From positions 1 to 37,354 of the forward strand of contig LT635940.1 of the NCBI GenBank assembly GCA_900128565.1: 37,354 nt of DNA. The letters run 5' to 3'. Numbering within the stretch: the stretch's first letter is position 1; each line of letters opens with the position of its first letter. Shown here in pieces: positions 2-37,354 of this stretch. Source of the stretch: Stramenopiles sp. TOSAG23-6. Taxonomy: Eukaryota. The notes beneath the pieces were generated by a model. It was given only the letters and a program-made list of their open reading frames with translations. It was not told the DNA's origin and did no database searches. The position numbers and the translations under genes were made by a program.

Positions 2-1803
2 ATGTCGGTATGGGTGAAGAGTTTTTCAAATATCTTTCTTTCATTGTATTTTCCAGGTAAAATATCAAGAGTTAGATCTGATGGTACTTTTGATATACGA
101 TATGATGATGGTGACTCAGAACAAAGAGTGAAACGATCTCTAATAAAAAAAGAAGAAGATGCTCCAACTGTTGATAAAAGGACGCGTTCGTCACACAGGC
201 ATTCTTCTCACAGCTCGAGTTCATCAGATACTAGTCATGAAAGTAACCATTATACGTCGAAAAAGAAATCACGAAGATCATCTATAAAGACATCTGCATC
301 ATTCTCATCATCTGACTCTTCACCGAGGAAATCAAAAGGTATTAACAAAAGGAAGAAAATATACAGACAAATAACAAGCGATAGATATAATAGAAATAAA
401 TCGTCTGATTCTAACCTTAGTGATCATACTAGTGCTACTTCTAATAGCTCAAATGCAATGAATTCATACTTCGAAAGTGAGTTTTTATTTGGTGATGTCG
501 TGCGTATTTTAAATGAGAAAAGTAGTAAATCAAAAAAGAATGAAAATCGTACAATCTATGGTGAAATTATTCTTGTGCGGTACGTTTTCATTATATTTCG
601 ATACACATTGTAAATATTTCCTTAATAATTATTGTTCTATCATATACAAACTTTTTCTCATGACAAAAACGATTTATATATGTCATTTTCTACAGCGCGG
701 ATGGGACATATGATGTTGAAGTTTTAGTAAATAGTCCTCAAAATAACTCAGATGAACCTAAAATTATTGAAAGACTGAATCGGAGTCAGCTGTCTATGAA
801 ATCACAACAAAGTAACGATGAATGCTCAAATGATGATAATATAAAGAATCGTAAGACAAAAACACATCAATTGAAGAATGCTACGGATTCTGAGAGCCCC
901 GATGTATCAGATGACAGTGAACGCATGAACATTTGGACTCATGTGGAATGCCGTAGCAAAACATACCCCAATGGGCCGTGGTCTTCAGCTCAGATAGTGG
1001 GTAAGAAGTTTCATTCCAAACTTACGAAAAAGTCCAGGAGTCACCACAAGAAGAAAAAAAAGACATCAAGATATAATCAGAGATCGAGTGATAGCGTTAG
1101 TTCTGAGAGTAAGAACAGAGAAAGTGATTCTTCTGCGAATAGTAGTGATAAAGGATCATATGTGTATGATCTATTTTTTGCCGATGGTCATTCAGAGGAA
1201 TCTGTTAGTGCACATAACATTCGCGCTGCTGGTGCCCGTCATGATGATATAAAGGATAATCCTGATGCCCCCCAAAATGCACCAACGTCAAAAATTGCGG
1301 CAAAAATTAGACGGCGAATTAAATATTTATCTGACGATGGTTTTGATTATCGACAACCATTCTTTGAAGCGGACTCTCTTCGTGTGGGAATAATTTCTAG
1401 AAAAGATTTTTTATCAGCTACAAGACAACTTAACTTAAATCTTTCGGACGAGGCTTTATCATTATTAATGGATCGATTTGTTTATGATGCCACAATGCCA
1501 GGATATGTTTGCTACGATTCATTCTTTGCATTCGTTTCTGCACCATTACCCCATGCTTGGTCAATGCCAAAAAAGTTGCAACGTGACAAACCTCTCCAAG
1601 ATTTGACTAAAGAATATCATCATAAAAAACAAAAAAAGAAACACCGCAAAAGTAAAGGCAAACATCGAAATATAAGAACGAGCTCTAAACATTCTTCAAG
1701 GAAAAAAAAAGCATCAAAATTAGACGTACATTTTATTGACCATTCAAATCCATCAGTAGTTGGTTATAAGGATGCAAGATTGGAATGGATAGATCATACA
1801 TAA
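2..1803 (+). CDS. Ser/Lys-rich protein with Tudor-like repeats and a C-terminal EF-hand-like region; probably 5'-partial; exons ~2-579 and 696-1803
   Basis: Tudor-like motifs YFPGKISRVRSDGTFDIRYDDGDSE, ILVRADGTYDV and YVYDLFFADGHSEE, plus an EF-hand-like segment (FFEADSLRVGIISRKDF...GYVCYDSF). Removing GT-AG intron 580-695 joins ORF 2..613 in frame to ORF 796..1803. Confidence 0.7.
580..695 (+). other. Canonical GT-AG spliceosomal intron (116 nt)
   Basis: GTACGT...TTTTCTACAG; splicing gives ...ILVR-ADGTYDVEV in frame. Confidence 0.85.
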
Positions 1804-2894: not shown

Positions 2895-4427
2895 ATGATT
2901 TCAAGAAGTTTTAACGAATTACCGTCACACGGTATGCTCTTGTATCAGTCACACATCAAACCACAACCTGAAACAGTACAGGATCAAGTACAGAAAGAGC
3001 TTCGCAAAGCCCTAGGCGAATCTTTACCTCCAAATAAAGGTGATGCCAGTATACCTTTAGATGTTTTAAATTTATGCTCACGTTTACATCCATATAATTG
3101 GAAAGTTTCAAACCATTCGAAAGAACGTCTTGGAAAGCTTATAAGTCAAAACATATCTTCAGGTGTACGGAGTAGTGGAGATCGATTCCAAAATTGTCCA
3201 GATCCAGTTTTGCCAGGAACATTTATTCAGGGTGAAAATCATAGAAAAGTAGCCAAAATAAGGAAACATTTTTCTGGGATATTTCGTTCCACAGCTCCAG
3301 GTAAATTGAACGAAACGGGAGATACAAAACGCGATAAAGCTGGTAATACATCACCCATGATGCCAGATATTACTAGACCTAATTACACAATGATAAGAAA
3401 CAATATCCATCTCATGCAAACACCAGCAGAACTTGCAGTGCATGTTTTAAATCGACGAAATAAAGCTTTAGCAGCTGCAAAGGCCTCTGAACTTCGTTCA
3501 ATATATCCGGCACCTCACTATATTTACGATATGTCTAATACAATGGAAAATACAATGAAAGAAAGATATTTGAAAAACTCTTCACCCATACCGACATCAA
3601 TTTCAAATAATACACATAAAAAAAAACGGGTTAAGAGTTCTCGCTTGCATTATACTCCAGAGATTCGATTAATAAATAATATACCAAGGAATTTGATGCA
3701 TCGAAACATTTCTACTGCACAGCGTAGATATTCTTACAATATAAAGCATGGAAATAAAAGAAAAAAACAGGGGGGAAATATTCACAAAACAAACTCTTTA
3801 TCTTCATCCAAAGTCGAATCTAAACGTTCGCATTGTGAAGACACGAATTCTAAAAGTTCGGATTCAAATGATGTGAATTCTAATGGTGGGAAAATACACT
3901 TTCGAGTACTAGGAAATACTGGAATCTCACAAAGACAAAGTAAAAATACAAAAACAGGGTTTTTAATAAATCGTAGTAAGCACACAGAGGCTGGTTTTTA
4001 TAAAAAACGGACTAACATTCCTAGATCAAATAATCTTTCTCGCTGGGCATCAACACAACGACAACCATCGAATATTTTTCGCCCTTTATCACAAAGATCG
4101 ATCCGTCCATTCAGTCCTGCACCATGGCATCATGTAGGTTTTCATCATTTCAATTTCATTTGATGTAAACAAAAACTTTGCACCTAACATTTTTTTGTTT
4201 TAAAACATTTTTTTTTCACATTACATGTACGTTTTCAAAATTAATTTCNAANTTAGNTTTTTTTTTCGTACGAAATTTTGTACCTAACAAATTTTGACTA
4301 TACTTTTTTTTTCACATAACATGATACTTCTAGAGGTTATAGTCATCCAGATTTTCCGGATTTTGATTTTCAATTACAAGGAAGTACGAAAGCACTTAAT
4401 GTTTCTGTACATGGACAGCACGAATAA
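2895..4427 (+). CDS. Hypothetical basic protein, ~447 aa after splicing; exons 2895-4133 and 4323-4427
   Basis: The long ORF runs into two tandem repeat elements; removing 4134-4322 continues in frame (PWHH-DTSRGYSHPDF...GQHE*) to TAA at 4425-4427. Confidence 0.7.
4134..4226 (+). mobile_element. Introner-like non-canonical intron, copy 1 (93 nt, GT...AT), diverged
   Basis: cat|GTAGGTTTTCATC...CTTTGCACCTAAC...TTTTTCACATTACAT; homologous to the other copies. Confidence 0.8.
4227..4322 (+). mobile_element. Introner-like non-canonical intron, copy 2 (96 nt, GT...AT), directly abutting copy 1
   Basis: GTACGTTTTC...TTTCGTACGAAATTTTGTACCTAAC...TTTTTCACATAACAT|gat; contains three N bases. Confidence 0.85.
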
Positions 4428-4480: not shown

Positions 4481-6154
4481 TTATTTATTTTTTCCAAGAC
4501 AAACGATCGACATACAACTCAATTCAGGACCATTCTCCCCAATTAATTTATATCGACAACCTCCAGCCACCTTTTGTAATTGTTGATTACTCTTTTGAAA
4601 TTGAGAAAAAGGTGCAGTTACAAGGCGTTTGGAGGCAGAGTGTTGAGTGATTAGTAGCAGCGAACTGTACATATTATTCCTTGACGCAATTGAGTCCAAA
4701 TTTTGCTTCCATTTCGGATCACTTGAAGTACAAAATGTAAATCGATTCTCATTTCTTTGTAATACATTTGGCAAAGCTACACCAACAATAGTGCACCAGT
4801 GACTACGCCGTCCTTTGTTCAACACAGGCAAACATGATCCCGGTTCTGAATCATATGGTAAAAGAATCAGATTACCTTTTGTTATATTGGATATAATGCG
4901 TATAGGAGATATATTTTTCCATACTTGTGTTTGGACAATTTCAGATCGAAATGATGCAATATGTGCAAGATGGGCGGCGTTGAACATTTCTCCATCCATA
5001 GTATAACCAAATCGTATTCCTTTTGATAACACATTCTCATTTTCACCTTTTTCATTTTGTACAAATGTTTGAACTAGTGTTTCCTCTATATTACCAAGTA
5101 GTACAGAAGATTTGCTCAAAGACATGTCTTGAGGACTCACACTACATTGACTACTACACATTTTGTCATCGTTTTTTGTCATCACACTATTCGTTTTTGC
5201 CACCGAACCATTGGATTTTGAAATTGAAGTTGTGTACTGGGCGATATCTTCTATAACTCCCCAAATACCAATGGTGGCAGCTTCCCCATTCGTTTGAAAA
5301 TAACTTTGCCTCAATAATGATAATCTATAAAAATTTTCTACTGCAGAAATAGCACAAAATCCACACGTCGGTCCCATTTGATTATGATGGGGAGGAAGAC
5401 ATGTTATAATTCGCCAAGCTATTGGAGGAGGACACTTGAGAGTAGAACAATTTTTCACAAAAAAATTTATCCCAGAACAGATATCATCAATTATTTCTTG
5501 AAATGTTCGTTTTGTTGGCTGTTTTCTTTGGAAAACATGAGAAATACGCCGTTGTAGCCACACTTTCTCATCTCCAGTTTTCCCTGTATCATCAACAGAG
5601 AAAGTCAAATTATTTGACTTAGTGTATTTTCTTGACTTACTCTGAAGCATTGTTTGAAGTACCGCAAGGCCACTACTTTCACTATCTGGCTCTTTTGAAC
5701 GACGAAGAAAACGGAAAACTTTTTTTTTCGTAGTAAAAGAACTACTCTCTTCATAGCCACATGATTTGTAAAATCCATTTGCCAGTTTTGGTGAAGTACA
5801 AAGGCAAAGATGAGTCATACCTAACCTCTTTGCAACTACTTCTGCCTGAGAAAGTAGATAACGACCGATACCACGACGACGCCAATTGTTGTGTACAATT
5901 ACATTTGATAAAATTCCTTTTGCGCCTGAAATTTCACCTGCTCCATGTTTCAACCGAATATATCCAATGACAATGTTCTCAGGTGATACAAGAACATAAT
6001 GTCTACTTGATTTCACAGATTTCTGTAAACTTGATGTCCACGAAGAATGCGTCGGAGGCTGTTTCCATTGCTGAGCGAGAAGAGTTGCACAAGACGAAAT
6101 AAGAGGAAGGGTTAGCGGAAGAAATGAGAATTCCGACTCTATTCTCTTTGTCAT
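4481..6154 (-). CDS. Fusion of an NAA80-like GNAT N-acetyltransferase and an ACTMAP (C19orf54/UPF0692)-like cysteine protease
   Basis: N-terminal part: LISSCATLLAQQW, VIGYIRL, LSNVIVHNNWRRRGIGRYLL (acetyl-CoA motif A), FYKSCGY. C-terminal part: NQMGPTCGFCAI, GYTMDGEMF, LLPYDSEP, PVLNKGRRSHWC. One uninterrupted ORF; first ATG at 6154. Confidence 0.8.
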   Translation of the reverse strand: MTKRIESEFSFLPLTLPLISSCATLLAQQWKQPPTHSSWTSSLQKSVKSSRHYVLVSPENIVIGYIRLKHGAGEISGAKGILSNVIVHNNWRRRGIGRYLLSQAEVVAKRLGMTHLCLCTSPKLANGFYKSCGYEESSSFTTKKKVFRFLRRSKEPDSESSGLAVLQTMLQSKSRKYTKSNNLTFSVDDTGKTGDEKVWLQRRISHVFQRKQPTKRTFQEIIDDICSGINFFVKNCSTLKCPPPIAWRIITCLPPHHNQMGPTCGFCAISAVENFYRLSLLRQSYFQTNGEAATIGIWGVIEDIAQYTTSISKSNGSVAKTNSVMTKNDDKMCSSQCSVSPQDMSLSKSSVLLGNIEETLVQTFVQNEKGENENVLSKGIRFGYTMDGEMFNAAHLAHIASFRSEIVQTQVWKNISPIRIISNITKGNLILLPYDSEPGSCLPVLNKGRRSHWCTIVGVALPNVLQRNENRFTFCTSSDPKWKQNLDSIASRNNMYSSLLLITQHSASKRLVTAPFSQFQKSNQQLQKVAGGCRYKLIGENGPELSCMSIVCLGKNK

Positions 6155-6333
6155 CGTTTGGACTTTGAAAACACGTAAGTGAATGAAATTCAATGAATGA
6201 TTCAGAATGAATGAATTCAATCTTCAACGAAAATCATGACAGAAAGATTGAATTTGACAGAATCGTAAAAATGACAGCATTCATTCACAACATAAATATA
6301 ATAGAACACAAAGTAAAAACACAAAGAAACAAC

Positions 6334-7092
6334 ATGAATAAAATATGCCAAACTCATTTTGTTAGAAAGGGAAACCGGGTGATTCCCCCTTTCCCAGCGG
6401 GATTTAGAAGGCTCGTCGTTGGCACGGGTTGTTTCTGGGGAAGTGAGAAGGGTTTTTGGCGATTGCCAGGAGTGTATAGTACTTCTGTTGGTTATGCTGC
6501 TGGATTAACTCGAGATCCCACCTATGAACAAGTTTGTAGTGGAAAAACCGGACATAACGAAGTTGTTCAAGTAATATATGACCCGAATGTAATTGCTACA
6601 TGGGACTTGATGCGTTTCTTTTGGGAATCGCATGATCCCACTCAAGGAATGGGTCAAGGAAATGACCGAGGAACGCAATATCGTAGTGGTATATATTGCA
6701 CGTCTCATGACCAAAAAGTTGTGGCAGAAGCTTCGAGGAATTCATATCAAAAACTTATCGGATCGAAGAAGCAAATTACAACTGAAATTCTTATGATGGA
6801 TGAAAAGAATCCAAATAACTCTAATGTCGATTGCAAGTTCTATTTTGCTGAAGATTACCATCAACAATATTTGGCAAAACCAGGGGCACGGCCATATTGC
6901 TCAGCGCAACCTCTCGGTATTAGCTTACAAAGTGAAGAAGGTACATCATTCTTTCAAGGGAAAATTGGCATGGAATTAACCAAGAGAGGTGAAGGGCCAC
7001 CAAAGCTATCGGAAAGTTTCTGGGATTTACACGCTCCAAAGCCAGGTTGTTCTGTTGTGAGTGCGTCAAATAAACCGATACTATTTCTATGA
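6334..7092 (+). CDS. msrA: Peptide methionine sulfoxide reductase A (start uncertain: 6211, 6271 or 6334)
   Basis: GTGCFWGSE active site, PTYEQVCSGKTGHNEVVQV, HDPTQGMGQGNDRGTQYRSGIY, FYFAEDYHQQYL. Confidence 0.95.
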   Translation: MNKICQTHFVRKGNRVIPPFPAGFRRLVVGTGCFWGSEKGFWRLPGVYSTSVGYAAGLTRDPTYEQVCSGKTGHNEVVQVIYDPNVIATWDLMRFFWESHDPTQGMGQGNDRGTQYRSGIYCTSHDQKVVAEASRNSYQKLIGSKKQITTEILMMDEKNPNNSNVDCKFYFAEDYHQQYLAKPGARPYCSAQPLGISLQSEEGTSFFQGKIGMELTKRGEGPPKLSESFWDLHAPKPGCSVVSASNKPILFL

Positions 7093-16164: not shown

Positions 16165-19100
16165 TCACTTTTTTTTCTTTTTTCCTCTTTTTTTCCCTTT
16201 CTTTCCTTTTTGTGGTACTTTTGGTTCATCTTTTGGTTTCCCTTGCAACGACGCTAGCTCCTCTCCTCGCTTCAGAGCTCGCTTTTCTTTATTTGTCAAT
16301 GGTTTTCCTCGTTTTCCTAGTTTTCCTGGCCCTACTTCTGCTGACTGTTGTCCTCTTGCCCGCGGATTCACTCTTGCCGAGCGTGGTAATTGTGCCAACG
16401 GATTTCTCCTAAGCAGAGATTCCAATTCTTCATGACTTGCTTCTTTTAGGTTAGACAACAAATATTCAAGTCTTTGTTCATCTGTTCGTGCCTGCTCTAC
16501 ATCTTGTTTATATTTCATAAGGTCTTCTTCAGGTACAGAAGATAAAAATTGAAAAATTTGTACAAGCGACCCAATTTCACCATGAAATTTTCCACATCTT
16601 ACTCGTTCCAAAGCTACCCTCAATTTATAATTCTTAATGATCTTGTCGAGCAGATCCTTTTGATGTTGTTTTGATAGAGATTCTCCCGCTTCTGTCATAA
16701 TTTTTGATAGAAATGTGTTCGCTTGTGTTGTAACTTGTTTCAATTTATCCTTCGTATCAAATGTAAATGCATCTCGATCTGAAACTCCGAGGGTCACTTT
16801 CTGTCCTCTTGCGATAGATGGGGTTACATGACGACCTAAACCTGTAAGAAATATTAGCCTATCATGTTCACTCATATATCCTTTCAGAAAATCTTTATAC
16901 AAACTTAATACGTCACCAGATTCATCTATTCTCTTATTATAACAAATATATACAGGATCCCGCAACTCTTTATTTGTAGGTAAGGTAGGTTTCTCACTTT
17001 TTCCAAACACGAGTTGTATTCCAAAGTACCTATCGCATGGATGATCTTCCCCATCCACTACCCATTTATCAGCAAATTTCAGATTTGGCTGTATATCTTT
17101 TGGTAACTCGGACATATAATTTATGATTAACGGAAGAATTTGTGCCATTAATGTTAAGACGGTATTTTCATATACTGGATCTGTCTCCTTATAACCCGCA
17201 TCCTTCACCGATTGAATGGCAGAAAACGCGGCTGCCATGTAAGGGTCGTCGTCAACATTGAATTGAACTTTCAAATCATAATCGGAATTTTCTCTCAAAT
17301 GATAATGGAAAACACTGGTAACATGGAATCCTTCAGATTTTATAAGATATTTTCTTTCATCAAGAGGAGGGATACTCCTGAATTGTCTGGTTTTTTTCTC
17401 GGAATGTAATACTTCAACTTCATTCTCACTAATTAAAGTATTTATATGTCGTGCCGCTAAAATATTTCGAGCGATTCGATTTGGTATATGTTGATGCTCT
17501 AATGACCCTGTAACCCATTTATATTCCATTTGCCTAGTAAATGCTATAAAATCGCGCATTATTTGCATACAATTATGCACACTTCTCAAAACCTTCTGTA
17601 TGGAATCTTGAAATTCTTTTAATTCAACATCGTCTGTAATGAGTATTTGAAACATGTTTTTNATTTCCATATCAGTTCCAGCTTTGGTCAGTTCAAATAA
17701 AGCTTCGAAATCATGTAAGTTCATCATATCATTCTTCCATGCGTTTGCGTATCTTTCTTTATACTCAATATTTACACCAGCGTCAATAGGATTAGACTGA
17801 AATGAGTTTAAAATTTCTCTTTGTTTGGTCAGAGTATAATTCATCATTTCAACAGCAAAAAAAATATTAATCATTGTTTCTTCCCATACAAGATAATGTT
17901 CTTCCCCCCATTTCAAAATTGCACCATGAATAGGACTTTCCTTGCGCTTGATTACCCTGCTGTCAAAGGTTACCGCTGATAACACAAAAAAATCTTGCAA
18001 ATTTTTTGAATAATCATTATAATATTCGTAGACACGCTCTTTCATTTTTTCCATTATATGAAGGTCCCAAGTCGTATTTTCTTCACCTATCTGATATCCC
18101 GAGTCTACCATCACAGCGCTCGCGGGAACGGCGGGAACAGCGGGTTCTGCGTGTATATCATCTAATGGAGTATCATCACCTGGAGTATCATCACCGGCCG
18201 GCAGAGTGTCATCTTCTTCCCGTCTATCTGACGCGATTTGTGTAATGTGCTCATCCGTGAAGCGCTGTGGCATTAGAAGGACATCACTTATTTTGGAACC
18301 ATTGCACTGATCGATAGGAGATCCGATCAATTTTTGAATTACAACATGGAGCTCCTGAGTCGCTCTTAATAGAGCACTATCACTAAAGTCTTCACCAATC
18401 GAACTTAATTTCTGTCTTAAAAACTTTGCGGCCAAACTAGATTTCTTTTTTTTGTAGCGAAATAAAGTGTGCCATGTTTCAAATGCTTCCATTAGTGTCT
18501 CTTCTTTAGCTCTTATTGCAATCCCATTAGTTATTGATGATTCTTGCAAATAGTATCCGGCAGGATAATGAAATTTATGGGGTGATTCATTACGCCATAT
18601 GTAGGCGCCATTACTTTCCCCTTTGTATTGCTTTCTTGTCACAAAAACATTACCAGATCCTTCCCTATCACCAGCGACGGATTTTTCATTGTGAGCTGCT
18701 TTTAGTTCATGAGCTGGCGCTTCTGTGATTTTTGCCAGGACACCACATGAATGCTTCCTTGATGTAGAGCTCGATTGTGCTTCCAGCTCAAAGAGAGTCC
18801 ATAAAATGGACTTATCCTTACTCTCGGAACAAACCCAGTCATCAGAATTATATTCAAACGCAGTTTCCCTATTGAATTGTATGGTAACGCCTACTTTTTG
18901 CCATTCATCTAAAGCATCTTCAAGGGAAGAAAATAAAATTTTCATCTGAGGAAAATCTGTCAAGTTTTCTTTGTAAGGAGAAGTCCACAGAGCATTTCCT
19001 TTTCCTACTGAGCAAGAAAGATGTATCACAAGCGCTGATTTAACTGCAAGCCAAAGCTTGTTCATTTTTTCTATTGCAGATGGATACTTTTGTGCAATTG

Positions 19101-19518
19101 ATAGTGGCCATTGATCAACTTCAAAAAGCGATCGATGTCGGTCGTTGTCGTCTCCAGGGTCATTCAGACGAACATTTGAAAGCGGTCCAAAAAATAAATT
19201 CACGTTGANGTATATGAATTCTTCTTTGTTTGGAACACTATAACTGCAGCAACCAGTAAATCTATGCATCATTTCTCGAAAACGTTCGTAATCAGCAATC
19301 GTCATTAAGTTGAAGGCAGCCCTTAGCGCTGGTCTAGGAATGAAATGATGCGCACTTTGTTCATCATCACTAAGTTTAGGTATTTTCAATTGGGACCCAT
19401 TTTGCCTTGGAGTAAACCAGTTCCCTTGGGCTTCAGGTGGAGCTGCTAATGCAGCAGATGAGCATGTAAAAACAGTAAACAGAGTCAGCACTAGTATTAA
19501 GTAATGTATGTCGACCAT
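16165..19518 (-). CDS. Large orphan protein (~1117 aa) with a probable signal peptide and a Lys-rich C-terminal tail
   Basis: Long uninterrupted ORF; hydrophobic MVDIHYLILVLTLFTVFTCSSAALA from ATG 19518; no domain recognised. Confidence 0.7.
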   Translation of the reverse strand: MVDIHYLILVLTLFTVFTCSSAALAAPPEAQGNWFTPRQNGSQLKIPKLSDDEQSAHHFIPRPALRAAFNLMTIADYERFREMMHRFTGCCSYSVPNKEEFIYXNVNLFFGPLSNVRLNDPGDDNDRHRSLFEVDQWPLSIAQKYPSAIEKMNKLWLAVKSALVIHLSCSVGKGNALWTSPYKENLTDFPQMKILFSSLEDALDEWQKVGVTIQFNRETAFEYNSDDWVCSESKDKSILWTLFELEAQSSSTSRKHSCGVLAKITEAPAHELKAAHNEKSVAGDREGSGNVFVTRKQYKGESNGAYIWRNESPHKFHYPAGYYLQESSITNGIAIRAKEETLMEAFETWHTLFRYKKKKSSLAAKFLRQKLSSIGEDFSDSALLRATQELHVVIQKLIGSPIDQCNGSKISDVLLMPQRFTDEHITQIASDRREEDDTLPAGDDTPGDDTPLDDIHAEPAVPAVPASAVMVDSGYQIGEENTTWDLHIMEKMKERVYEYYNDYSKNLQDFFVLSAVTFDSRVIKRKESPIHGAILKWGEEHYLVWEETMINIFFAVEMMNYTLTKQREILNSFQSNPIDAGVNIEYKERYANAWKNDMMNLHDFEALFELTKAGTDMEXKNMFQILITDDVELKEFQDSIQKVLRSVHNCMQIMRDFIAFTRQMEYKWVTGSLEHQHIPNRIARNILAARHINTLISENEVEVLHSEKKTRQFRSIPPLDERKYLIKSEGFHVTSVFHYHLRENSDYDLKVQFNVDDDPYMAAAFSAIQSVKDAGYKETDPVYENTVLTLMAQILPLIINYMSELPKDIQPNLKFADKWVVDGEDHPCDRYFGIQLVFGKSEKPTLPTNKELRDPVYICYNKRIDESGDVLSLYKDFLKGYMSEHDRLIFLTGLGRHVTPSIARGQKVTLGVSDRDAFTFDTKDKLKQVTTQANTFLSKIMTEAGESLSKQHQKDLLDKIIKNYKLRVALERVRCGKFHGEIGSLVQIFQFLSSVPEEDLMKYKQDVEQARTDEQRLEYLLSNLKEASHEELESLLRRNPLAQLPRSARVNPRARGQQSAEVGPGKLGKRGKPLTNKEKRALKRGEELASLQGKPKDEPKVPQKGKKGKKRGKKKKK

Positions 19519-19791
19519 TCTATATATATACTCCAACAATAAAAGACGTCGAATGATATATTCCAAGGTTCTGTGTATAATTTGAAATTTAAAACCGTTC
19601 GTCGTCCGCCGATACGGTATTTTATTTAATCGCATCCAGGAGCTGAAGCAGCTCTGGCGCTAGTACCGGGTATCCAAAATATTATATATCCGTTACACGA
19701 CACTATGACGACCAACAGCCAGTCAATCTGCAGTCAATCTTCTTTTAAACAAGGTTTTTTTTTGTCTCAAGAATGTATGAGTTAATATAGA

Positions 19792-24262: not shown

Positions 24263-25565
24263 TTATTTTTCTAGTAATTCTTTTGAAAACATAGCGTTCT
24301 GTTTATCATCATTCGCAGTTGCCACTTGGGAACAATCTCCAATGATATAGTTCAGTTTTTTTTTTGATTCTACAGCAATCGGATGGTCAAAAATACAAAT
24401 AGGTAACTGATAAGTATCATTGTAAAAATACTTTCGTTTTACACCTTTCCAAACCTTTTTATCCTGGACTTCAGCAATTGGACAGGGTATATAAGTGGTA
24501 GTAAAACCAAGAGCATCAAGCTCCTGTTGAGCTATTTGAGCGTACACATGTATTTTGGAAAAATATTTCAATTGTTTTTTCGTTAGGTACAAAATTTCGT
24601 ACGAAAAAAAAAATCGATTTTTTTGTTAAAAAAAAAATAAAACATCCACCATGAAAAATAATGTTATCTGGACAAAGTCCATTAAAAAATGAATAACATC
24701 CACCAGGTCTTAAAATCCTAGGCAATTTATGGTGAAACTCTGATTGCTCCCCATAATTCTCTCCATATGTATCAAAATATATACCATCAAAACTTCTATT
24801 ATCAATTTTTTCCATCATATCCTGCCAACGACCATGTAAAATCGTCACTCCTGGTTTCTTATCCCAACCCTCTTTTAACATATAAGCATAGACTTGAGGA
24901 TGGGCTTCAATGATTGTGTGACTACGTGGCTTGCGATCCTGAATATAATTATCAATTATTCCCATTCCAAAACCTACATTTAAAACATCTGCTCCTCGTT
25001 TTTGTTCCCGATTTTTACCAAGGCTAGTGATAACGTCAGCAGAAGCCTCCATCAATGGGCTTTCCCAAGACATCATAACACCGTCTTTGTCCGAGTCTAA
25101 TAGTTGTTTTCCGTCCTCAGTATATTTTACATCTCGTTTAAGATAATCATTGCTATACTTGTTTGGTTCCGCCTTTAAGGTCTCTTTAGAAGTAGACTCG
25201 TTCGTGTGCTCACCAGGTCTGGTACTCATGGAACTTTTTTTCTTCAAGCACGCTAATAAAAGCTCAGAAGTTACCCCAGCATTAACGATACGATCGACAC
25301 ATTTTTGATGTCCAGCTTCTAATGCATAATCACCAGCACATTTATACTGGCGGTCCACTGCGTTCCATGGAGCACCTCTATAGAGCAACTCATTCATAAC
25401 CTCCAAATGACCATGTTGAGCTGCAGCCATTAAAACTGAGGTACCCGTTTCACTTCGCTGATAAAATTGCTCGGCTCCGTCCTTCAGTAACTGACGAACT
25501 AATTTAAAATTACCTGTTACAGCTGCATCCCATAACTGCTCATTTAATACATTGATTTCTGTCAT
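24263..25565 (-). CDS. RMT2: Protein arginine N-methyltransferase RMT2 (ankyrin + GAMT-like domain), 400 aa; exons 25565-24648 and 24547-24263
   Basis: Ankyrin repeats, GAPWNAVD, VMMSWESPLM, VLNVGFGMGIID, HTIIEAHPQV, FDGIYFDTY, YSFFNGLCPDNIIFHG-VYAQI, WKGVKRKYF. Confidence 0.9.
24548..24647 (-). mobile_element. Introner-like non-canonical intron, copy 3 (100 nt, GG...AT)
   Basis: ggt|GGATGTTTTATTT...TTTCGTACGAAATTTTGTACCTAAC...TTTTCCAAAATACAT|gtg; nearly identical to 30181-30279; removal restores the RMT2 frame. Confidence 0.9.
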
Positions 25566-28911: not shown

Positions 28912-31900
28912 ATGACAAATACCCCTCGTGGTACTCAGGCGCGTTTTGGTAGTAGTGGCTATGAAAAGTCATTATACGGGCGAAAAAACTATTCTTTTGG
29001 AGACCAGAAGAAAAAGCTCGTCTATCATGAGGACCGACCTTCACGAATAGCGTGTGTGAAATTTGGTTTGCTGTCTGGTCTAGAAATGGCGCGTATGTCT
29101 GAGATGCATGTATGTTCGAGCGAGCTTTATCAGCTTTCAACTCGTGAGCCCAGCCGTAATGGTTGCATAGATAGACGTCTAGGTGTCTCTGATAAGCGAA
29201 GTAAGTGTGAAACATGCGGTAAAAATTTAGCAGATTGCATTGGTCACTTTGGTCACATACAGCTCGCTCTCCCAGTGTTTCATATAGGATATTTTAACAC
29301 CATTATCAAAGTGCTTCAAAACATATGCAAAACTTGCTCTCGTACGCTCCTCGATGATAAAGAAAGAACATCATATCTTGCTCAAATGAGATCAAAATCC
29401 ACACATGTTTTAAGAAAACAACAAATAATTAAAAAGATCACAGCTCGATGTCGTCGTGTAACTCGGTGTCCTCACTGTGGTGCAATCAACGGCCCTGTAA
29501 AAAAGATAGCAGGTGCTCGTGGATTACGTGTTATTCATGAAATATTTAAAGTTAAGCAAGCTGTAGAACTAAAGCAGGAGTTTCGTGAAGAATTCGAGGA
29601 GGCTTGTCAAGCGAATCCAGAAATTGAACAACATATTAACAAAGCTCAACATGATCTTGACCCTGCGTATGTATATAACTTATTCAAAACCATTAAAGAC
29701 CACGAATTGGATCTATTTTGGTTGTCTCCTGAACTATCTAGACCAGAGAATTTATTACTCACACATATTTTAGTGCCCCCCGTGTGTATAAGACCTTCCG
29801 TCCAGATGATGGCTGGTGCATCCAATGAAGATGATTTGACCATGGCTTTGAGAGGTATAATAGAAGCTAATCAAGAACTTCAGTTTCATTTAGAAAAAGG
29901 TGCTGCAACAAAACATGTTGTTGAAGCGTGGGACCATTTATCTATGCAAACAGCCCAATATATTAACGGGGCATTACCCGGTTTACCTCCTGCTGTACGA
30001 AAAAGTATAAAACCTATCCGAGGCCTGTGCCAAAGACTCAAAGGTAAACAAGGCCGTTTTCGAGGCAATCTTTCTGGTAAACGAGTAGATTTTTCTGGTC
30101 GAACAGTCATTTCTCCTGATCCTAATTTGCAAATTGACCAAGTAGCCATTCCAAGGCGTGTAGCGATTCGATTGACCTATGTATGTTTTATTTTTTTTTT
30201 AACAAAAAAATCGAGTTTTTTTTTCGTACGAAATTTTGTACCTAACGTTTTTTTTTTGAAATATTTTTCCAAAATACATCCAGAACGAGTCAATAATCGA
30301 AATATTAAAAAAATGAGAGCTGCCGTTCTAAATGGTGAACTTAACTGGCCTGGTGCAAATTTTGTAAGAAAGAAAGGCAAACGTCCAATATCATTGTTGT
30401 ATGCAGATAAAAAGCGAACTGCTAAAGATCTTAAAATTGGTGATATTGTTGAACGTCATTTAATTGATGGTGATGTAGTTTTGTTTAATCGCCAACCTTC
30501 CCTTCATAAGATGTCAATTATGTCTCATTGTGTAAAGGTAATGCCATGGAGAACTTTTCGATTTAATGAATGTGTATGCTCTCCATATAATGCCGATTTT
30601 GATGGTGATGAGATGAATATTCATGTGCGTTTTTATCATTCATTCCAAATTTAAATGTTTTTTTTTCATAGATAATTTTGTACCTAACAAATTTGAAATT
30701 TTTGAAATATTTTTTATTACACATGTTCCACAAACTGAAGAAGCGCGTGCTGAAGCATTTACTCTGATGAATGTGAAAAGAAATTTAATTACACCTAAAA
30801 ATGGTGAGCCTCTAGTAACGGCAACACAAGATTTTCTCACGGCGTCATTTTTAATGACTGCGCGTGACAATTTTCTTGATCGGGATGCGATGTGTCAAGC
30901 TTGTTCCCATATGCAAGACGCTGGCTTTCACGTTGTCTTACCTCCACCTACGATTGTTGCACCAGTTACATTATGGACGGGTAAACAATTATGGTCAGTT
31001 TTATTACGTGCGTGTATCGGAAAATCCAAAGAATTGAACATTATTGCCAGAGGCAAATGTTTTGTAAGTCCGAATGAACGCGTGGGGTATCAAGACTTGG
31101 ATAATTGTTTATGCCCAAAAGATGGTTGGGTAATTGTTCGTAATTGTGAAGTTTTATGTGGCAGACTAGGAAAGGGGATTTTAGGTGGGAAGAAACAAGG
31201 AATTATTTTCACTATTGTTCGTGATCATAGTGTTGAAGCTGCTGCAATGATGATGGTAATGATGACAAAATGTGTCACACGCTGGCTGACAGGTCACGGA
31301 TTTTCTATTGGAATCGATGACGTTTCACCAACACAGCAACTGACAAAGCGTAAAGCGAAAGTATTGGAAGAGAATTTTGAAAAATGTCGTGTTAAAATTG
31401 ATAAATACAAAGCAGGAACGCTGCAAATGAAGCCAGGTTGTAACATGGATGAGTCGCTTGAAGCTGATGTAAAAGGTATACTTAGTGCTGTTCGTGAAGA
31501 AATGGGTTCTATGTTGATGGCAACTCTGCCTAATTATAATTCACCTTTTATTATGGCTACATGTGGTTCTAAAGGATCTGCCTTAAATATATGTCAGATG
31601 GTTGCGTGTGTTGGTCAGCAGGTAGTAAATGGTGAACGTGCTCCTGAAGGTTTTGTTCAACGTACTTTACCGCATTTTGGTATTAATGCTCGCGAACCTG
31701 AGGCAAAAGGTTTTGTAGCTAGTTCATTTTATACCGGACTCGATGCAATGGAGTTTTTCTTTCATACAATGGGGGGTCGAGAAGGTCTTGTCGATACTGC
31801 AGTAAAGACAGCTGAAACAGGATATATGTATGTTTTATTTTTTTTTCAAATTCGATTTTTTTTTTTTGAAAATTTTGTACCTAACGAATTTTTTTCTGAA

Positions 31901-34003
31901 ATATTTTTCCAAAATACATGCAACGTCGTTTAATGAAAGCTTTAGAAGATTTATCTTTACAATACGATGGTACAGTGCGAAGCAGTACCAAACAAGTAGT
32001 GCAATTTACATATGGTGATGATGGTCTGAATGTTTGTTTCCATCATGAATTTTTTATCTAATTTTTTTCATACGAAATTTTGTACCTAACAAACATTTTG
32101 AATTTTTTTTAAATATTTTTTCACAACACATCCATCCTGTATGGAAGATAATGAACGACCTGTAGATTTGAATCGTTTATTACGAATTGTTAGTGCTGAG
32201 TTTTCCGTTGGGCAAAAGTTTTCTTTAAGTGGACCAGGGATGTCACCAGAACAAATTTCTGCATCAGCAGAGTCGTTTATTGCATCACCAAAATTAAATA
32301 TATTACCCCACATTCGTAAATTTGTGGAAGAAATTAGAGAATTTAGCAAAAATCTGTGTGATAAAGTGAACAAAGGTGTACTGTCCTGCGGTTTACAAAA
32401 TTTTAATAATAGTAAAAGTTCAAAGAAAAAGAGTAAATCAAAACAAACGAAACCATCGTGGGGCAGTTGGCCTACTGTGTCAAAAATAAGAGCCGATTGG
32501 CAGCACGAACTATCTGCATTTGAGGCATCATCAAAATGGCGCGCACAAGCTGCAGATAAAACAAAACAAGCTTGGATGGAAGAAGGATCTCGAATCTTTG
32601 AGAACGTACACGCGATTCATACGGAAGTATTAGATGAAGTATGGAAACGTGCATTAATTAAGTATACTATGGCTACAATGGAATCAGGTGAGGCAGTTGG
32701 TGCTGTTGCTGCTCAAAGTATTGGTGAACCTGGTACACAAATGACATTGAAGACATTTCATTTTGCTGGTGTTGCTAGTATGAATGTCACTTTAGGTGTT
32801 CCTCGTATTAAGGAAATAATCAATGCTACAAAAAATATATCAACCCCAATTATTACAGCAGAATTGCAATCTGATCAAAGTGAAATTGCTGCGAGAATTG
32901 TGAAAGCTCAAATTGAAAAAACTACTTTAGGTGAAGTATCAAAATCTATGAAGGAAGTGATTGGTCCTGGTTTGTATTGTATTGAAATTACTCTAGACAT
33001 GGAAGCGATCCGTAAATTGTATCTACAAGTGGATGCATTCTCTGTTTGTCAAGCAATTATAAATGATTCTAAACTAAAATTGAAAGCTCAACACTTAGAG
33101 CGTGAAGGTGATGACGTCATTCGTATATATACACCATCGGAAATTGTGAGGATGGCACGCGCAAAAACGCATGGTCCAAAGCCTCCTGTCAACGGTAATC
33201 GTAATAGTCAATATTTTAATAGTCAAATATTGAAAGAGCATTTACCAAGTGTCATAGTTCAAGGTATTAAAGATGTTACTCGTGCTGTTATTAACAAAAT
33301 TGATGCTACAGCAGGAAATCGAGCTCGTTATAATTTGCTTGTTGAAGGAAACAATATGCTTGATGTCTTAGGTACAGATGGTATAGCTGGTACAAAAACT
33401 ACAAGTAATCATATCATGGAAGTTGAAATTACTCTTGGTATCGAAGCGGCGCGAACAAAAATTATTCATGAAATTAAGTATACATACGGCAGTTATGGAA
33501 TCACCGTCGATGAACGTCATTTGATGCTTCTTGCAGATGTTATGACGTATAAAGGTGAAGTTCTTGGTATTACTCGATTTGGTATAGCAAAAATGAAAGA
33601 TAGTGTTCTAATGCTTGCATCTTTTGAAAAAACGAGTGATCATTTATTTGATGCAGCTGTACATGCGAGAGAAGATGAGATTGAAGGTGTATCAGAATGC
33701 ATAATCATGGGTATTCCAATGCCAGTCGGTACCGGCCTTGCCAAGTTAGTCCATAACCCAGAAAGGTGTGCGTTAGATAGTATGCCATACCCGGTAATGA
33801 GAGATGTTACACCATTAACTATTGGTGCTAGAAATCAGAAGTTATGTGCTTATAAAGCTAAAGAAGAGGAGTACCATAGAAATAGACGACCAGACTTATT
33901 ACTCAATATGGATAAAGATGATTTGATGTTGAACGCTCATCACAATGAATCGAAAAATATTAAAATTGAAAACACAATTGTAAAGGAAGAACCAGTACTA
34001 TAA
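28912..34003 (+). CDS. RPC1: DNA-directed RNA polymerase III largest subunit, 1566 aa; exons 28912-30180, 30280-30624, 30725-31827, 31920-32031, 32132-34003
   Basis: CETC...[105 protein letters not shown]; no heptad CTD. Exon lengths sum to 4701 nt, a multiple of 3. Confidence 0.95.
30181..30279 (+). mobile_element. Introner-like non-canonical intron, copy 4 (99 nt, GT...AT, in frame and stop-free)
   Basis: tat|GTATGTTTT...AAAATACAT|cca; splits the conserved LTY-PERV. Confidence 0.95.
30625..30724 (+). mobile_element. Introner-like non-canonical intron, copy 5 (100 nt, GT...AT)
   Basis: cat|GTGCGTTTT...TTTTGTACCTAAC...TTACACAT|gtt; splits [17 protein letters not shown]. Confidence 0.95.
31828..31919 (+). 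mobile_element. Introner-like non-canonical intron, copy 6 (92 nt, GT...AT)
   Basis: at|GTATGTTTT...AAAATACAT|g; splits the bridge helix [17 protein letters not shown]. Confidence 0.95.
32032..32131 (+). mobile_element. Introner-like non-canonical intron, copy 7 (100 nt, GT...AT)
   Basis: aat|GTTTGTTTCCATCATG...TTTTGTACCTAAC...TTCACAACACAT|cca; splits [15 protein letters not shown]. Confidence 0.95.
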
Positions 34004-34094
34004 TGTGTGCAATTATTTAATTATATTTATAAATGTACATCGAACGATAATGTGTGCAATTATTTAATTATATTTATAAATGTACATCGAACGA
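34001..34094 (+). repeat. Perfect 47-bp tandem duplication at the convergent ends of RPC1 and the methyltransferase
   Basis: TAATGTGTGCAATTATTTAATTATATTTATAAATGTACATCGAACGA at 34001-34047 and again at 34048-34094. Confidence 0.95.
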
Positions 34095-35000
34095 ATCGTC
34101 ATCACATGCATTTTTTACATGTTCAGGAGTAATCCAACCTAATAAGCTCTTCCCTTGTTTAAATTCCTCAGTGCGGCGTAAAATCGGGCTAATAATTTCA
34201 GGTGCATATATATCAAGTTCCTCGCACAAATCTGCAAATGCACAGCCTGAAAGAGAATATGGTATATTTGTTTGTACTCCTTCAGTGTCTTTTAAATCAT
34301 TTTTCTTTTTATAACCCCAAAATAGTAAATTTGGATTAATGGCTAATATCATTACTTTATCAAAAACTTCTAGATATCTATCCGTGACAATTTTCATCAT
34401 TTCCCGATTTGCAATGACATTGCACAAACATGATCCTCCAGGTTCAAGTACCGAATATGCTGCATACAGAGTTGTCATCTTCACCACACTTGCTGGTGGT
34501 AATTCAAGAGGAGCATTATCTATTGCGTTTTCTGCAGCTATATCGAGTATAATCAAATTATATCGGTGTCTTGAATGAACATGTCTATTCATTCTCTTCC
34601 AATCGCAACCAAAAGAGGTAGGAAAAGATGTTTTTGATTTTTTCGAACTTTCCGAACTCTTTGAAATTATATCAATTTCATTTTCTACAGCAGAGGCTGC
34701 ATCTTTCAAAAAGGAAACACCACATTGACAGATTACTTTAATTTGTGATCCAACAGCCATACCAAAAAAGTTGACAGCAGCATAAATGACTTCAGGCGAT
34801 AGATCTACAACATTTATTTGACAAAACGGAAAAGATGCCGCAATTGCATTCGGTACAGCCCCACCACCACATCCAAGAACAGCCACTCGTAATTGCTCTT
34901 TTTCTTCATACCTACAGGAATTATCTTTCGTCAATGCACCATGTTGTTCTAATAATGTCACGATACTAAGAGCAAATGCCTGGTTAATTTCGAATGGTGC
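34074..35000 (-). CDS. Class I SAM-dependent methyltransferase / spermidine-synthase-like domain (METTL13 C-terminal-like); terminal exon, own 5' exons not evident
   Basis: VAVLGCGGGAVP, VVDLSPEVIYAAVNFFG, YNLIILD, LEPGGSCLCNV; no in-frame ATG before the SAM-binding motif. Confidence 0.75.
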   Translation of the reverse strand, partial: APFEINQAFALSIVTLLEQHGALTKDNSCRYEEKEQLRVAVLGCGGGAVPNAIAASFPFCQINVVDLSPEVIYAAVNFFGMAVGSQIKVICQCGVSFLKDAASAVENEIDIISKSSESSKKSKTSFPTSFGCDWKRMNRHVHSRHRYNLIILDIAAENAIDNAPLELPPASVVKMTTLYAAYSVLEPGGSCLCNVIANREMMKIVTDRYLEVFDKVMILAINPNLLFWGYKKKNDLKDTEGVQTNIPYSLSGCAFADLCEELDIYAPEIISPILRRTEEFKQGKSLLGWITPEHVKNACDDDSFDVHL

Positions 35001-35090
35001 ATGTATTTTGGAAAAATATTTCAAAAAAAATCGTTAGGTACAAAATTTACTATAAAACAAAATTCGAATTTAAAAAAAAATAAAACATAC
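35001..35090 (-). mobile_element. Introner-like non-canonical intron, copy 8 (90 nt, GT...AT)
   Basis: agt|GTATGTTTTATTT...TTTTGTACCTAAC...TTTTCCAAAATACAT|gca. Confidence 0.9.
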
Positions 35091-36679
35091 ACTCATTTGG
35101 AAAATTCTCGTAATCAAACCATTGTCCCAATTCACAAAATTTGTATTGTGAAAAAATATTTTACATACGAAATTCGTTAGGTACAAAATTTCAATGAAAA
35201 AATATAAATTCGAAATTCATGATGAAAACATACTGTTTGTGTTCTTGTGGGTAATTATATGTACTCCATGACCCAGTGTATGTTGTTTTCGCAGACATTG
35301 CAGCAATCGCAGCGGATTTATGTATTGTGAAAAAATATTTCAAAAAAAAACGTTAGGTACGAAATTTCGTACGAAAAAAACCTTAAATAAGAAATTCATA
35401 TAAAACGTACATCATCTGCTACTTTCAGAATTCGATCTTTAATCGCAACGCTTCCTTCTACAAATAAAGGCATAATTGTAGATTTTAACCACTCACAGCA
35501 GGTACATGATGGTGCCATTTTGGCGTAAATATACCATTGCATGAAAGGGCCAAAGACGACGAAAATGACTAAACAATTTAAAAGCATTATAGGAGGCATC
35601 CACATCAAAACTTTACTACGATTATTGTTTGGATCATATACACGTTCAAGTTGTCCATGGAAATCTAGATTTGGGCGGAGTTCAAATTCAGGTTCGTATG
35701 GATTAGGAATCTCTTCGTTGACACCTTGACGAGGTAAATTCCATCGATGACAAATGACATGACAATATCTTGTCCAATATTGTTTTAGTAAAGGTCCCCA
35801 AACACACGTAATCAATATACCTGTTATAGTTAATAACATCACATAAGCATTCCAATGAAAAAGAGAAACCACCCATAGACATGCACCAGTAATTCCTATA
35901 GGTACTATAAGAATTGTGTAGAATTGCACAAATGCAAAGTATAAAGCTACACGTTCGCCAAAATGATTTCGGATTTCGTCAACAAGCCAATCCGCACGAG
36001 CCCGAGCAACAGATGGAAATAAAGTACAATTTTTATTCATATACATTTTATGTAGCCACTTATTCCAGATTTGATCTTGTAGCGGATACATTGCTTTTAT
36101 ACCCAATTCAGGGCAAGAGTGTGCTAAAATTTCAGATTCACTGCCGACAACTGTGCCTAGTGCACGGCGTATAATTCTATCAGTTAAACGCAATTCCTCA
36201 GCATGAGAAAATGTCTGATGTTCAACTTCACCCATTGAACTATCGGTATCTATAATTCCGTATTTAATACGTCTGGCGCGTTCTACTCGCCTTCTCTCGT
36301 GCCTCAAAAGATTATGATCATCAATGCGCCGTTTACCTTTTCGACCGGTAGCCGATAAAAGGACTGTCAGTGTGTGTGCTGTTTCAACAGTTTTTTCTAA
36401 GAGACCGATATGAATTCCAGCTCTACACATTGTTTGTAAGGTCAAAATATGTCGTTCGATAGTATCATGGTCGATATATATATGAGCATCCTGTCCATCT
36501 TTCTGTTTTAGTTTCGACTTTGGTACACAATCTAAAATTAGCGCTATACTATAGCGTAGCCTGTCTTTTGGTGAAGTATCTAAAATATCAAAAAGAGAAC
36601 CGCTGCCGATTTTGCCTACATCAGTTGTTGGTGGCTTCTTTTGTGAAGCCAAAGACATTCCACGCAAAATTTTTGGCAT
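35091..36679 (-). CDS. Anoctamin/TMEM16-like protein, N-terminal half only; exons 36679-35411, 35319-35234, 35140-35091
   Basis: YPLQD, VDEIRNHFGERVALYFAFVQFYT, TM1-TM2, WTRY...RWNL, TM3; the C-terminal TM bundle is absent. Confidence 0.75.
35141..35233 (-). mobile_element. Introner-like non-canonical intron, copy 9 (93 nt, GT...AA)
   Basis: ca|GTATGTTTTCATCATG...TTTTGTACCTAAC...TTCACAATACAA|a; removal reads HKQFCELGQW in frame. Confidence 0.85.
35320..35410 (-). mobile_element. Introner-like non-canonical intron, copy 10 (91 nt, GT...AT)
   Basis: gat|GTACGTTTTATATG...TTTCGTACGAAATTTCGTACCTAAC...TTCACAATACAT|aaa. Confidence 0.9.
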
Positions 36680-36993: not shown

Positions 36994-37255
36994 ATGAGTA
37001 GACGTGGGCTAGAAAAAGATAGATTACCAGCAATTAGAAGAGGAGATCACCATCCCCGATCCCAAGCAACCAAAGAAGAATGGTCTCAGTTTCTACGGAA
37101 AAGGTACAACAGAAAAAGTACAAAGAATGGTGTTCGAAATGCATTAATGGACACCAATAGAACTACAGAGCAACTTCGTGTTCTTTCTATATGGCTGCGA
37201 GGAAGTAGTATTTGTCCAGATAGCGTCAGCGACAAAGCTATCTTGAAAGTTGCTT
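36994..37255 (+). CDS. First exon of a hypothetical protein (3'-partial)
   Basis: ATG-initiated ORF that runs into element copy 11. Confidence 0.55.
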
Positions 37256-37354
37256 GTACATTTTATATGAATTTCTAATTTATTTTATTTTTGGTTTTCA
37301 TACGAAATTTCGTACCTAACGATTTTTTTGTTGAAATATTTTTTCACAATACTT
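37256..37354 (+). mobile_element. Introner-like non-canonical intron, copy 11 (99 nt if complete, GT...TT), ending at the window edge
   Basis: tt|GTACATTTTATATG...TTCATACGAAATTTCGTACCTAAC...TTCACAATACTT. Confidence 0.85.

Follow-up and report, generated by a model that had tools for sequence, protein, structure and literature searches.

Does a single polypeptide outside animals combine the two enzymes that act, one after the other, in the N-terminal maturation of actin? This question is raised by an open reading frame (ORF) on the minus strand of contig LT635940.1 from Stramenopiles sp. TOSAG23-6, the whole of which (37,354 nucleotides, nt) is referred to here as the window. A first-pass annotation, made from the letters of the DNA alone, read the ORF as an NAA80-like GNAT acetyltransferase joined to an ACTMAP-like protease. 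In the parts accessible to us, reviews describe ACTMAP and then NAA80 as acting consecutively on actin in animals, and the actin maturation that depends on these two enzymes as exclusive to animals. We conclude from homology that the ORF probably encodes a bifunctional enzyme, in which an NAA80-family acetyltransferase and an ACTMAP-family cysteine aminopeptidase would together carry out the N-terminal maturation of actin.

Both domains lie in one reading frame

The ORF (P0001; 4481..6154, minus strand, as are all of its features described below) is a single exon of 557 codons followed by a stop codon at 4481–4483. Its first ATG is at 6154, with an in-frame stop 23 codons upstream, and the frame continues uninterrupted from this ATG to the stop codon through both domains. 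The first-pass annotation had placed both domains in one ORF at 4481–6154, and the continuous 557-codon frame together with Pfam matches to GNAT models and to PF21646, both much stronger than chance would give, bears this out. The motifs that it quoted were all found in their places, the codon of the presumed catalytic cysteine falling exactly at 5363–5365. No copy of the intron family present in the window (see below) was found on the coding (minus) strand inside the ORF.

In a separate seawater study, an 11-kb contig spans 4496–6400 in the same frame with nine substitutions. Seven of these are inside the ORF, where they are spread over the GNAT loop, an insertion and the protease domain; six of the seven are at codon position 3, three residues are changed and no frameshift results. 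The sole indel of this contig, a deletion of 2 nt, falls upstream of the start codon. The bias towards third positions in an independent contig shows that the reading frame is single and under selection. Given the family alignment, AlphaFold2 modelled the full chain with a mean predicted local distance difference test score (pLDDT) of 80.3 and a predicted template modelling score (pTM) of 0.78, with low confidence only in a GNAT loop (residues 182–192) and in the insertion (residues 294–353). This protein has kept every residue that is invariant in the family.

Transcript data for the locus are sparse. Two RNA-seq runs from one sample each yielded one metatranscriptome contig of ~150 nt inside the ORF (5398–5558 and 4640–4790), and a contig at 5304–5546 came from a third run, which carries a metatranscriptomic label and is probably DNA. 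The RNA contigs are too thin to support or oppose a single transcript. Rather than two separate genes, the locus appears to hold one, with a frame that is open throughout and kept in the independent contig, and with a layout shared by ~100 representatives of the family.

The N-terminal half is an NAA80-like acetyltransferase

The limits of the NAA80-like GNAT domain (residues ~14–204; 5543..6115) were set using Pfam, the comparison of the family profile with the PDB, and VIA-align. Pfam GNAT models match residues ~41–143 with E-values from 2e-12 to 1e-8, the best of them being Acetyltransf_7 (E 2.4e-12, residues 50–136). When the profile of the family alignment A1 (78 sequences, described below) was compared with the PDB, Drosophila NAA80 (8.8e-32) and human NAA80 (2.2e-27) were matched along the entire domain, N-terminal helix included. 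The next solved GNAT followed at 8.8e-13 and no other did better than 1e-10, which puts NAA80 ahead of any other solved GNAT by ~15–19 orders of magnitude. The structural model gave the same ranking. A Foldseek search of the PDB with the full-length model returned NAA80 entries as its best five matches, and VIA-align, applied to model range 1–204, gave Z-scores of 20.0 for fly NAA80 (root mean square deviation 2.5 Å over 152 residues) and 19.9 for human NAA80 (1.8 Å over 147 residues), the next chain having a Z-score of 17.6. Since family profile and structure both put NAA80 first, the reading of this half as NAA80-like, and not as a member of an unrelated GNAT family, holds. On the strength of profile and model, we regard its membership of the NAA80 family as solid.

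Helix α1 contains the motif CATLLAQQW (residues 22–30; 6065..6091). The first-pass annotation had compared it with a CADLIN.QW helix of NAA80, and human NAA80 (PDB 6nas) indeed has ACADLINDQW opposite this motif. The acetyl-CoA-binding R/Q-x-x-G-x-G motif is represented by RRRGIG (residues 92–97; 5864..5881), in which G97 is invariant in A1, R92 is present in 72/78 and G95 in 71/78 members; by sequence, this motif is intact in the fusion protein. The extent assigned to the domain, ~6115–5740, needed correction at one end: the start stood, and the domain was found to extend further, to ~5543, by way of a last strand that follows a long loop. This poorly conserved β6–β7 loop (residues ~150–197; 5564..5707) has a predicted helix at 161–179 and predicted disorder at 182–192. 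According to the accessible parts of Goris et al. (2018), human NAA80 likewise has a long β6–β7 loop. The motif VWLQRR after the loop (residues 198–203; 5546..5563) forms a strand in the model within the NAA80-aligned range. Its family form is VWLRKRL, with W199 in 75/78, K202 in 74/78 and R203 in 75/78 members. Since the structural alignment with NAA80 extends to residue 204, the motif can be assigned to the last GNAT strand (β7).

The third-best solved match to the A1 profile was PDB 9y12 (E 8.8e-13), a stand-alone GNAT of Bacteroides fragilis that was aligned with the N-terminal helix included. On the basis of this match, NAA80-like GNATs may have bacterial cousins.

The C-terminal half resembles ACTMAP

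The remainder of the protein (residues ~245–556; 4487..5422) is an ACTMAP-like cysteine peptidase domain of the papain/C39 type. The Pfam family ACTMAP-like_C (PF21646) matches residues 363–459 with an E-value of 3.7e-19 and 69.8 bits against a cut-off of 27, and the match covers profile positions 21–120 of 121. In a database of 5.8 billion proteins, the A1 profile found the NCBI protein P0169, annotated as ‘C19orf54 (predicted)’ of the sea spider Pycnogonum litorale, with an E-value of 1.3e-32; in a local profile search the same protein was matched over positions 239–463 (E 5e-40). Pairwise comparison of the two proteins gave 27% identity over 175 residues (E 3e-13) and a second segment over the nucleophile motif. 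They have in common the motifs Q.GPTCG, GEMF, PYD, KG..HW and SN. Of the ACTMAP motifs that the first-pass annotation had named, GEMFS, PYD and KGHKAHW are all present in the sea spider protein, whose nucleophile motif reads GPTCGL (QDGPTCG opposite QMGPTCG), where the annotation gave GPQCGL. The match of this half to ACTMAP is therefore supported by PF21646, by the profile and pairwise matches to an animal C19orf54, and by a conserved Gln-Cys-His core.

The putative catalytic residues can be placed on this framework. QMGPTCG (residues 259–265; 5360..5380) contains Q259, the presumed oxyanion-hole glutamine, and C264 (5363–5365), the presumed nucleophile, which stands at the start of a model helix (264–289). 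In human ACTMAP, as far as the accessible part of the literature reports, mutagenesis has confirmed C132 as the nucleophile and the AlphaFold model has been likened to bacterial cysteine proteases and papain-like enzymes. GYTMDGEMF (residues 383–391; 4982..5008) includes G388 and E389, and PYD (residues 433–435; 4850..4858) ends in D435; Q259, G261, C264, G388, E389 and D435 are all invariant in A1 (78/78). The presumed catalytic histidine is H452 (4799–4801) of KGRRSHW (residues 447–453; 4796..4816), a motif that aligns with KGHKAHW of P0169; this residue, found in 77/78 members of A1, stands at the start of the model strand 451–463. Residues S522-N523 (4586..4591), aligned with SN of P0169, are conserved in 75/78 and 72/78 members, respectively, and N523 is a candidate for the third catalytic residue.

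Between the nucleophile helix and DGEMF lies a lineage-specific insertion of ~85 residues (about 290–372; 5039..5287) that is rich in Ser, Thr and Asn and predicted to be disordered (pLDDT <50 over residues 294–353). The spacing from the cysteine to DGE is accordingly wide, 123 residues compared with 32–90 in five other fusions. One of the third-position substitutions of the 11-kb contig (at 5195) falls within the insertion.

Residues 205–557 were also modelled separately (pLDDT 78.9). The nearest structures were the pseudomurein endoisopeptidase PeiR (Z 14.2) and a C39-like peptidase (Z 13.9), the latter also being the best Foldseek match of the protease model (E 2.3e-3), followed by the phytochelatin-synthase-like Alr0975 (Z 13.8) and C39 domains of the PCAT1 type (Z 12.3–12.7). 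As modelled, the protease half has a C39/papain-like fold. No ACTMAP structure was present among the PDB entries searched. A second alignment (A2), aimed at the protease half, was dominated by its GNAT columns when compared with the PDB and added nothing.

The fusion recurs in a large protist family

When 1.84 billion representative proteins were searched exhaustively with HMMER, 332 matches were obtained at E up to 1e-3. Alignment A1 consists of P0001 and 77 two-domain matches from this family (n = 78). Among the 50 best representatives after a near-copy of P0001, 48 carry both PF21646 and GNAT models according to Pfam. A local phmmer analysis of the best ~150 of the 332 matches found both domains in 103 of 151 sequences, the protease alone in 33 and the GNAT part alone in 15. 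The survey of protists proposed with the first-pass annotation thus shows the same fusion to be common, about 100 of the best 150 representatives having the two-domain layout. They include a ‘hypothetical protein’ of Diplonema papillatum (Euglenozoa) and one MMETSP transcript, and the NAA80–ACTMAP domain pair is visible in precomputed Pfam annotations. By sequence, P0001 is a member of a large, previously undescribed family of protist fusion proteins, not a singular event. Word-indexed searches say little about this distribution, and the exhaustive search of representatives was used in their place: with P0001 as query they found only the near-copy, and with the family alignment the near-copy and one animal C19orf54. 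No animal NAA80 was found among the 150 representatives listed.

Two sequences, P0115 and P0133, were considered as stand-alone NAA80-like GNATs, since NAA80 was their only match in the PDB (4e-22 and 9e-15, respectively). They are 95% and 79% identical to the GNAT halves of fused proteins and are probably fragments of such proteins.

Stand-alone proteases were found in an animal, in the chytrid Blyttiomyces and in the amoebozoan Clastostelium. In a protease-domain tree of 134 rows (built without P0002, cluster members P0152–P0168 and rows with <60% of the domain columns), these three and six further stand-alone proteins form one clade with a value of 98 in the Shimodaira–Hasegawa-like approximate likelihood ratio test (SH-aLRT); P0001 is in a clade of seven sequences, all fused (SH-aLRT 95). 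The stand-alone clade was recovered in a tree of 65 rows, with an ultrafast bootstrap of 95 and an SH-aLRT of 99, and was present in 97% of bootstrap trees. This smaller tree combined the nine sequences of the clade with 56 fused rows (55 drawn at random from the rows with >85% coverage, with P0001 and P0024 added) and left out 11 other ‘alone’ rows and three doubtful fragments. In the larger tree, eleven more rows classed as stand-alone are scattered among the fused ones. Five of these were checked; four are on contigs of 1–2 kb and are probably truncated gene models. The contig of P0073 is 11.6 kb long, and this row could represent a genuine secondary split.

A proposed mechanism and its alternatives

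The first-pass annotation proposed a ‘Rosetta-stone’ fusion of two consecutive steps of actin maturation. The homology of each half, the single frame and the recurrence of the fusion speak for it, and from these we infer an action on actin. We propose that the protein works as one cytosolic polypeptide. New actin would be N-acetylated co-translationally by the general N-terminal acetyltransferase machinery, which is presumably encoded outside the fusion gene. The C-terminal papain/C39-like domain would then use Gln259, Cys264 and His452 to cut off the acetylated first residue, either Ac-Met or, after removal of Met, Ac-Ala or Ac-Cys. Finally, the N-terminal GNAT domain, kept on the same substrate by the fusion, would move an acetyl group from acetyl-CoA to the exposed amino group. 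The choice of actin as substrate, the order of the steps and the hand-over between the active sites are modelled on the animal enzymes.

Several observations weigh against this reading, some of which favour particular alternatives. Among solved GNATs, P0001 as a single sequence gives NAA80 only a marginal lead (E 1.4e-3 for human NAA80 compared with 1.7e-3 for GNA1), and the strong NAA80 signal is that of the family profile. In Drazic et al. (2018, Table S2), Plasmodium, Tetrahymena, Emiliania, trypanosomes, plants and yeast are without a listed NAA80, which makes the distribution of the family patchy. Among the four runs checked, no RNA contig bridges the two domains, and the ORF beyond the short contigs described above has no RNA cover. 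The remaining points concern the substrate-contacting residues and a similarity to bacterial proteins, and are given with the alternatives on which they bear.

In the accessible parts of Goris et al. (2018), W36 and R43 of fly NAA80 are described as contacting residue 2 of the substrate (the W36A and R43A variants being inactive), K73 and S88 as contacting residue 3, and E87 as the putative general base. In P0001, the equivalent of W36 is W30 (6065–6067), a position that is Trp in 75/78 family members, and the K73 column has R67, so that the basic character is kept (R in 52 and K in 8 of 78). In place of the essential R43, however, P0001 has W39 (6038..6040), in a column that is R in 39, Y in 29 and W in 2 of 78 members; the alignment of this loop is gapped and the assignment uncertain. 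N84 occupies the S88 column (S in 41, Y in 20 and F in 12 of 78) and S83 the E87 column. Because Trp39, N84 and S83 replace R43, S88 and E87 of the fly enzyme, the recognition of an acidic substrate residue 2 or 3 may differ in this copy. The R43 and S88 columns co-vary in A1: most of the 39 members with R carry S, as in animals, all 29 members with Y, which make up one large clade, carry Y or F, and P0001 combines Trp with Asn. This pattern suggests a diverged specificity and may track differences in actin N-termini.

The main alternative is therefore a shifted specificity in P0001 or in parts of the family. The fusion would be real and both halves active, with a substrate that is not actin, or not only actin, either here or family-wide (other acetylated N-termini, for example, or actin-related proteins), and the animal enzymes would have become actin-specific later. 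Besides the missing Arg and Ser and the two co-varying states of these columns, this alternative can draw on the in vitro acetylation of Met-starting acidic peptides by fly NAA80, reported in the accessible parts of Goris et al. (2018); because such peptides are acetylated in vitro, the narrow range of the fly enzyme in vivo depends on cellular context. On the other hand, no substrates other than actins are known for either parent family, according to the reviews and Drazic et al. (2018). Conservation extends to W30 and to the basic residue at column 67, and it is difficult to see why precisely these two families should have been joined if they do not have a substrate in common. We consider a substrate other than actin unlikely, if still worth serious attention.

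A second alternative places the protein with bacterial fusions of a GNAT and a DUF3335 or peptidase C39 domain, which would imply a peptide modification or processing unrelated to actin and perhaps an acquisition from bacteria. A language-model feature search puts the whole protein nearest to such bacterial GNAT+DUF3335/C39 fusions, with a score of 0.93, and found nothing above 0.77 when these bacterial families were skipped; both outcomes serve as leads only. The bacterial fusions, which are noted in the accessible part of the literature, have the same domain order, and the third-best PDB profile match is the Bacteroides GNAT mentioned above. Against this, the matches in the feature atlas have only 136–145 of 256 features in common with the protein, below the 170 typical of matches within a family. 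PF11814 (DUF3335) does not match P0001 at E up to 1 or any of the 78 members of A1 at E up to 1e-3, whereas PF21646 and GNAT models match all 78; Peptidase_C39_2 is found weakly in 2/78 members and not in P0001 at E up to 1. The matches to PF21646 and animal C19orf54 are strong, NAA80 is the best GNAT by a wide margin, and the gene stands among eukaryotic genes in a stramenopile contig. Pfam lends no support to a kinship with the bacterial fusions, which we rate as highly improbable.

Least probable is that the single ORF is an artefact, whether by an assembly or sequencing error that merged two adjacent genes, by chimerism of the contig or by decay into a pseudogene: the source sequencing runs are very small, ambiguous bases occur nearby (about 4255–4275) and no transcript among contigs from the four runs crosses the domain junction, but the independent seawater contig keeps the frame with 6/7 ORF substitutions at codon position 3, ~100 independent representatives have the same layout, with the last GNAT strand conserved inside the supposed ‘linker’, and the family-invariant residues are intact in a chain modelled as a whole with a pTM of 0.78, so an assembly artefact is a very unlikely origin of the fusion ORF.

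Age and significance of the fusion

An NAA80–ACTMAP fusion is not described in the literature that we could search, a paper on zebrafish Naa80 included, but Haahr et al. (2022, Science) or Arnesen and Aksnes (2023) may mention one. Within the limits of that literature, the fusion is a real and new form of a known pathway. Because the same fusion is common in protists, the actin-maturation pathway is probably much older than animals. NAA80 orthologues have been reported in some Amoebozoa as well (Drazic et al., 2018). The tree of the protease domain fits the hypothesis of one transition between the fused and split states that separates Amorphea from other lineages; it is unrooted and has few taxon-labelled rows.

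It is possible, though we put it forward tentatively and as the less likely course of events, that the fused enzyme is ancestral in eukaryotes, was kept in stramenopiles and diplonemids, and was split once on the stem of Amorphea (animals, fungi and Amoebozoa). If so, the trimming and re-acetylation of actin would date to about the last eukaryotic common ancestor, and whether a lineage has the enzyme fused or split would serve, like DHFR-TS, as a rare genomic character informative about the root of eukaryotes. The contact residues, R/S in some lineages and Y with Y or F in others, would then track lineage-specific actin N-termini.

For the fields of actin biology and N-terminal acetylation, the gene fusion would be an independent confirmation that the two maturation steps are one functional unit, and the protist family pushes the probable origin of the pathway far outside animals. 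A compact two-in-one enzyme lends itself to the study of how actin is handed from protease to acetyltransferase, and could be useful for producing natively processed actin in heterologous hosts. The family also supplies testable candidates for actin maturation in the protists that carry the fusion, some of which are parasites or ecologically dominant grazers.

Host and genomic surroundings

The window is gene-dense and AT-rich, with 31–44% G+C per kb. A gene for peptide-methionine sulfoxide reductase (MsrA; 6211–7092) is arranged head-to-head with the fusion ORF. Beyond it are genes for a Ca-ATPase of the plasma-membrane type, a MutY-like glycosylase, a DEAD-box helicase, the La protein, a CRT-like transporter and the largest subunit of RNA polymerase III (Pol III). 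The Pol III fragment is closest to EukProt P0170, which bears a MAST-3-type label (75% identity overall, identical over the stretches compared), followed by oomycete proteins at ~54% identity, and DNA of the window recurs in seawater metagenomes of several studies. By these sequences, the host is a marine stramenopile and not an animal; the stramenopile relatives of the Pol III fragment thereby agree with the non-animal origin that the first-pass annotation had supposed.

Between the fusion gene's start codon and the start listed for the divergent MsrA ORF there are only 56 nt (6155–6210). The MsrA Pfam domain starts at residue 68 of that ORF, and the true start may be further in; whichever start holds, the promoter region common to the two genes is very short. 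Four long ORFs, at 16165–19635 (minus strand), 796–1803 (plus), 2895–4163 (plus) and 34074–35024 (minus), had no Pfam match at E up to 1e-5, and one of them has 1156 residues. The ORF at 2895–4163 is directly followed by two tandem intron-like elements, and its gene probably continues past 4336.

These elements belong to a family with eleven copies in the window, ~92–115 nt in length and alike along the whole of it. Seven are on the plus strand (4135–4229, 4227–4336, 30176–30291, 30622–30735, 31824–31927, 32028–32145 and 37253–37352) and four on the minus strand (24536–24651, 34989–35095, 35129–35237 and 35304–35415). Along this length they read GTATGTTTT ... TTTGTACCTAAC ... GAAATATTTTTYCAMAATACAT, and the motif TACCTAAC occurs 11 times compared with 0.85 expected. 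The ambiguous bases (N) at about 4255–4275 are in an intron-like element just downstream of the 3' end of the fusion gene. Introns of the Pol III gene were assessed by scoring excisions for the colinearity they restored with four stramenopile homologues. The best excisions were of 92–100 nt and had the ends GT..AT (equivalent to AT..AC by a 2-nt slide), not GT..AG, with scores of 151.5 versus 123.5, 240 versus 213.8, 225.2 versus 138.8 and 146 versus 108.8. By sequence, the elements seem to be a family of the introner type whose splice ends are non-canonical. In the public gene model of P0170, GT-AG introns are forced on 30622–30740 and 32028–32147, which delete conserved polymerase residues (PQTE, for example), and gene models of this lineage may be systematically wrong at such introns.

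Comparison with known systems

The GNAT half resembles NAA80, or NatH (PDB 5wjd and 5wje from fly; 6nas, 6nbe and 6nbw from human), in its α1 ‘QW’ helix, the Trp, the basic residue in the K73 column, the acetyl-CoA motif and the long β6–β7 loop. It differs in being the N-terminal domain of a two-enzyme polypeptide instead of a separate protein and, relative to the fly enzyme, in having Trp for R43, Asn for S88 and Ser for E87. Human NAA80 carries a proline-rich, profilin-binding stretch; no such stretch is evident in the fusion protein, in which the longest run of prolines is three residues. The host is a stramenopile, whereas NAA80 is called animal-specific in the accessible parts of reviews.

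With ACTMAP (C19orf54), the peptidase half has in common PF21646, the motifs Q-x-G-P-x-C-G, GEMF, PYD, KG..HW and SN, as seen in the animal orthologue P0169, and a papain/C39-like fold. Unlike ACTMAP, it is fused behind a GNAT domain and has the ~85-residue insertion, predicted to be disordered, after the nucleophile helix; the stand-alone proteases of the animal, the chytrid and the amoebozoan group together in a clade that is separate from the fused forms. In bacteria (Pseudomonadota and others), GNAT + DUF3335 fusions likewise have a GNAT followed by a C39-like cysteine peptidase of clan CA, but the peptidase belongs to PF11814 there and to PF21646 here, and the bacterial GNAT is not known to be NAA80-like. 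Plants offer a parallel of another kind. Although AMPP2 and GNAT7 come from unrelated enzyme families, are encoded by separate genes and act in the plastid, so that the analogy is one of logic only, their action on the large subunit of Rubisco, as described in the accessible part of the literature, follows the same course as that proposed here for the fusion protein: the acetylated residue of a very abundant protein is cut off, and the new N-terminus is acetylated again.

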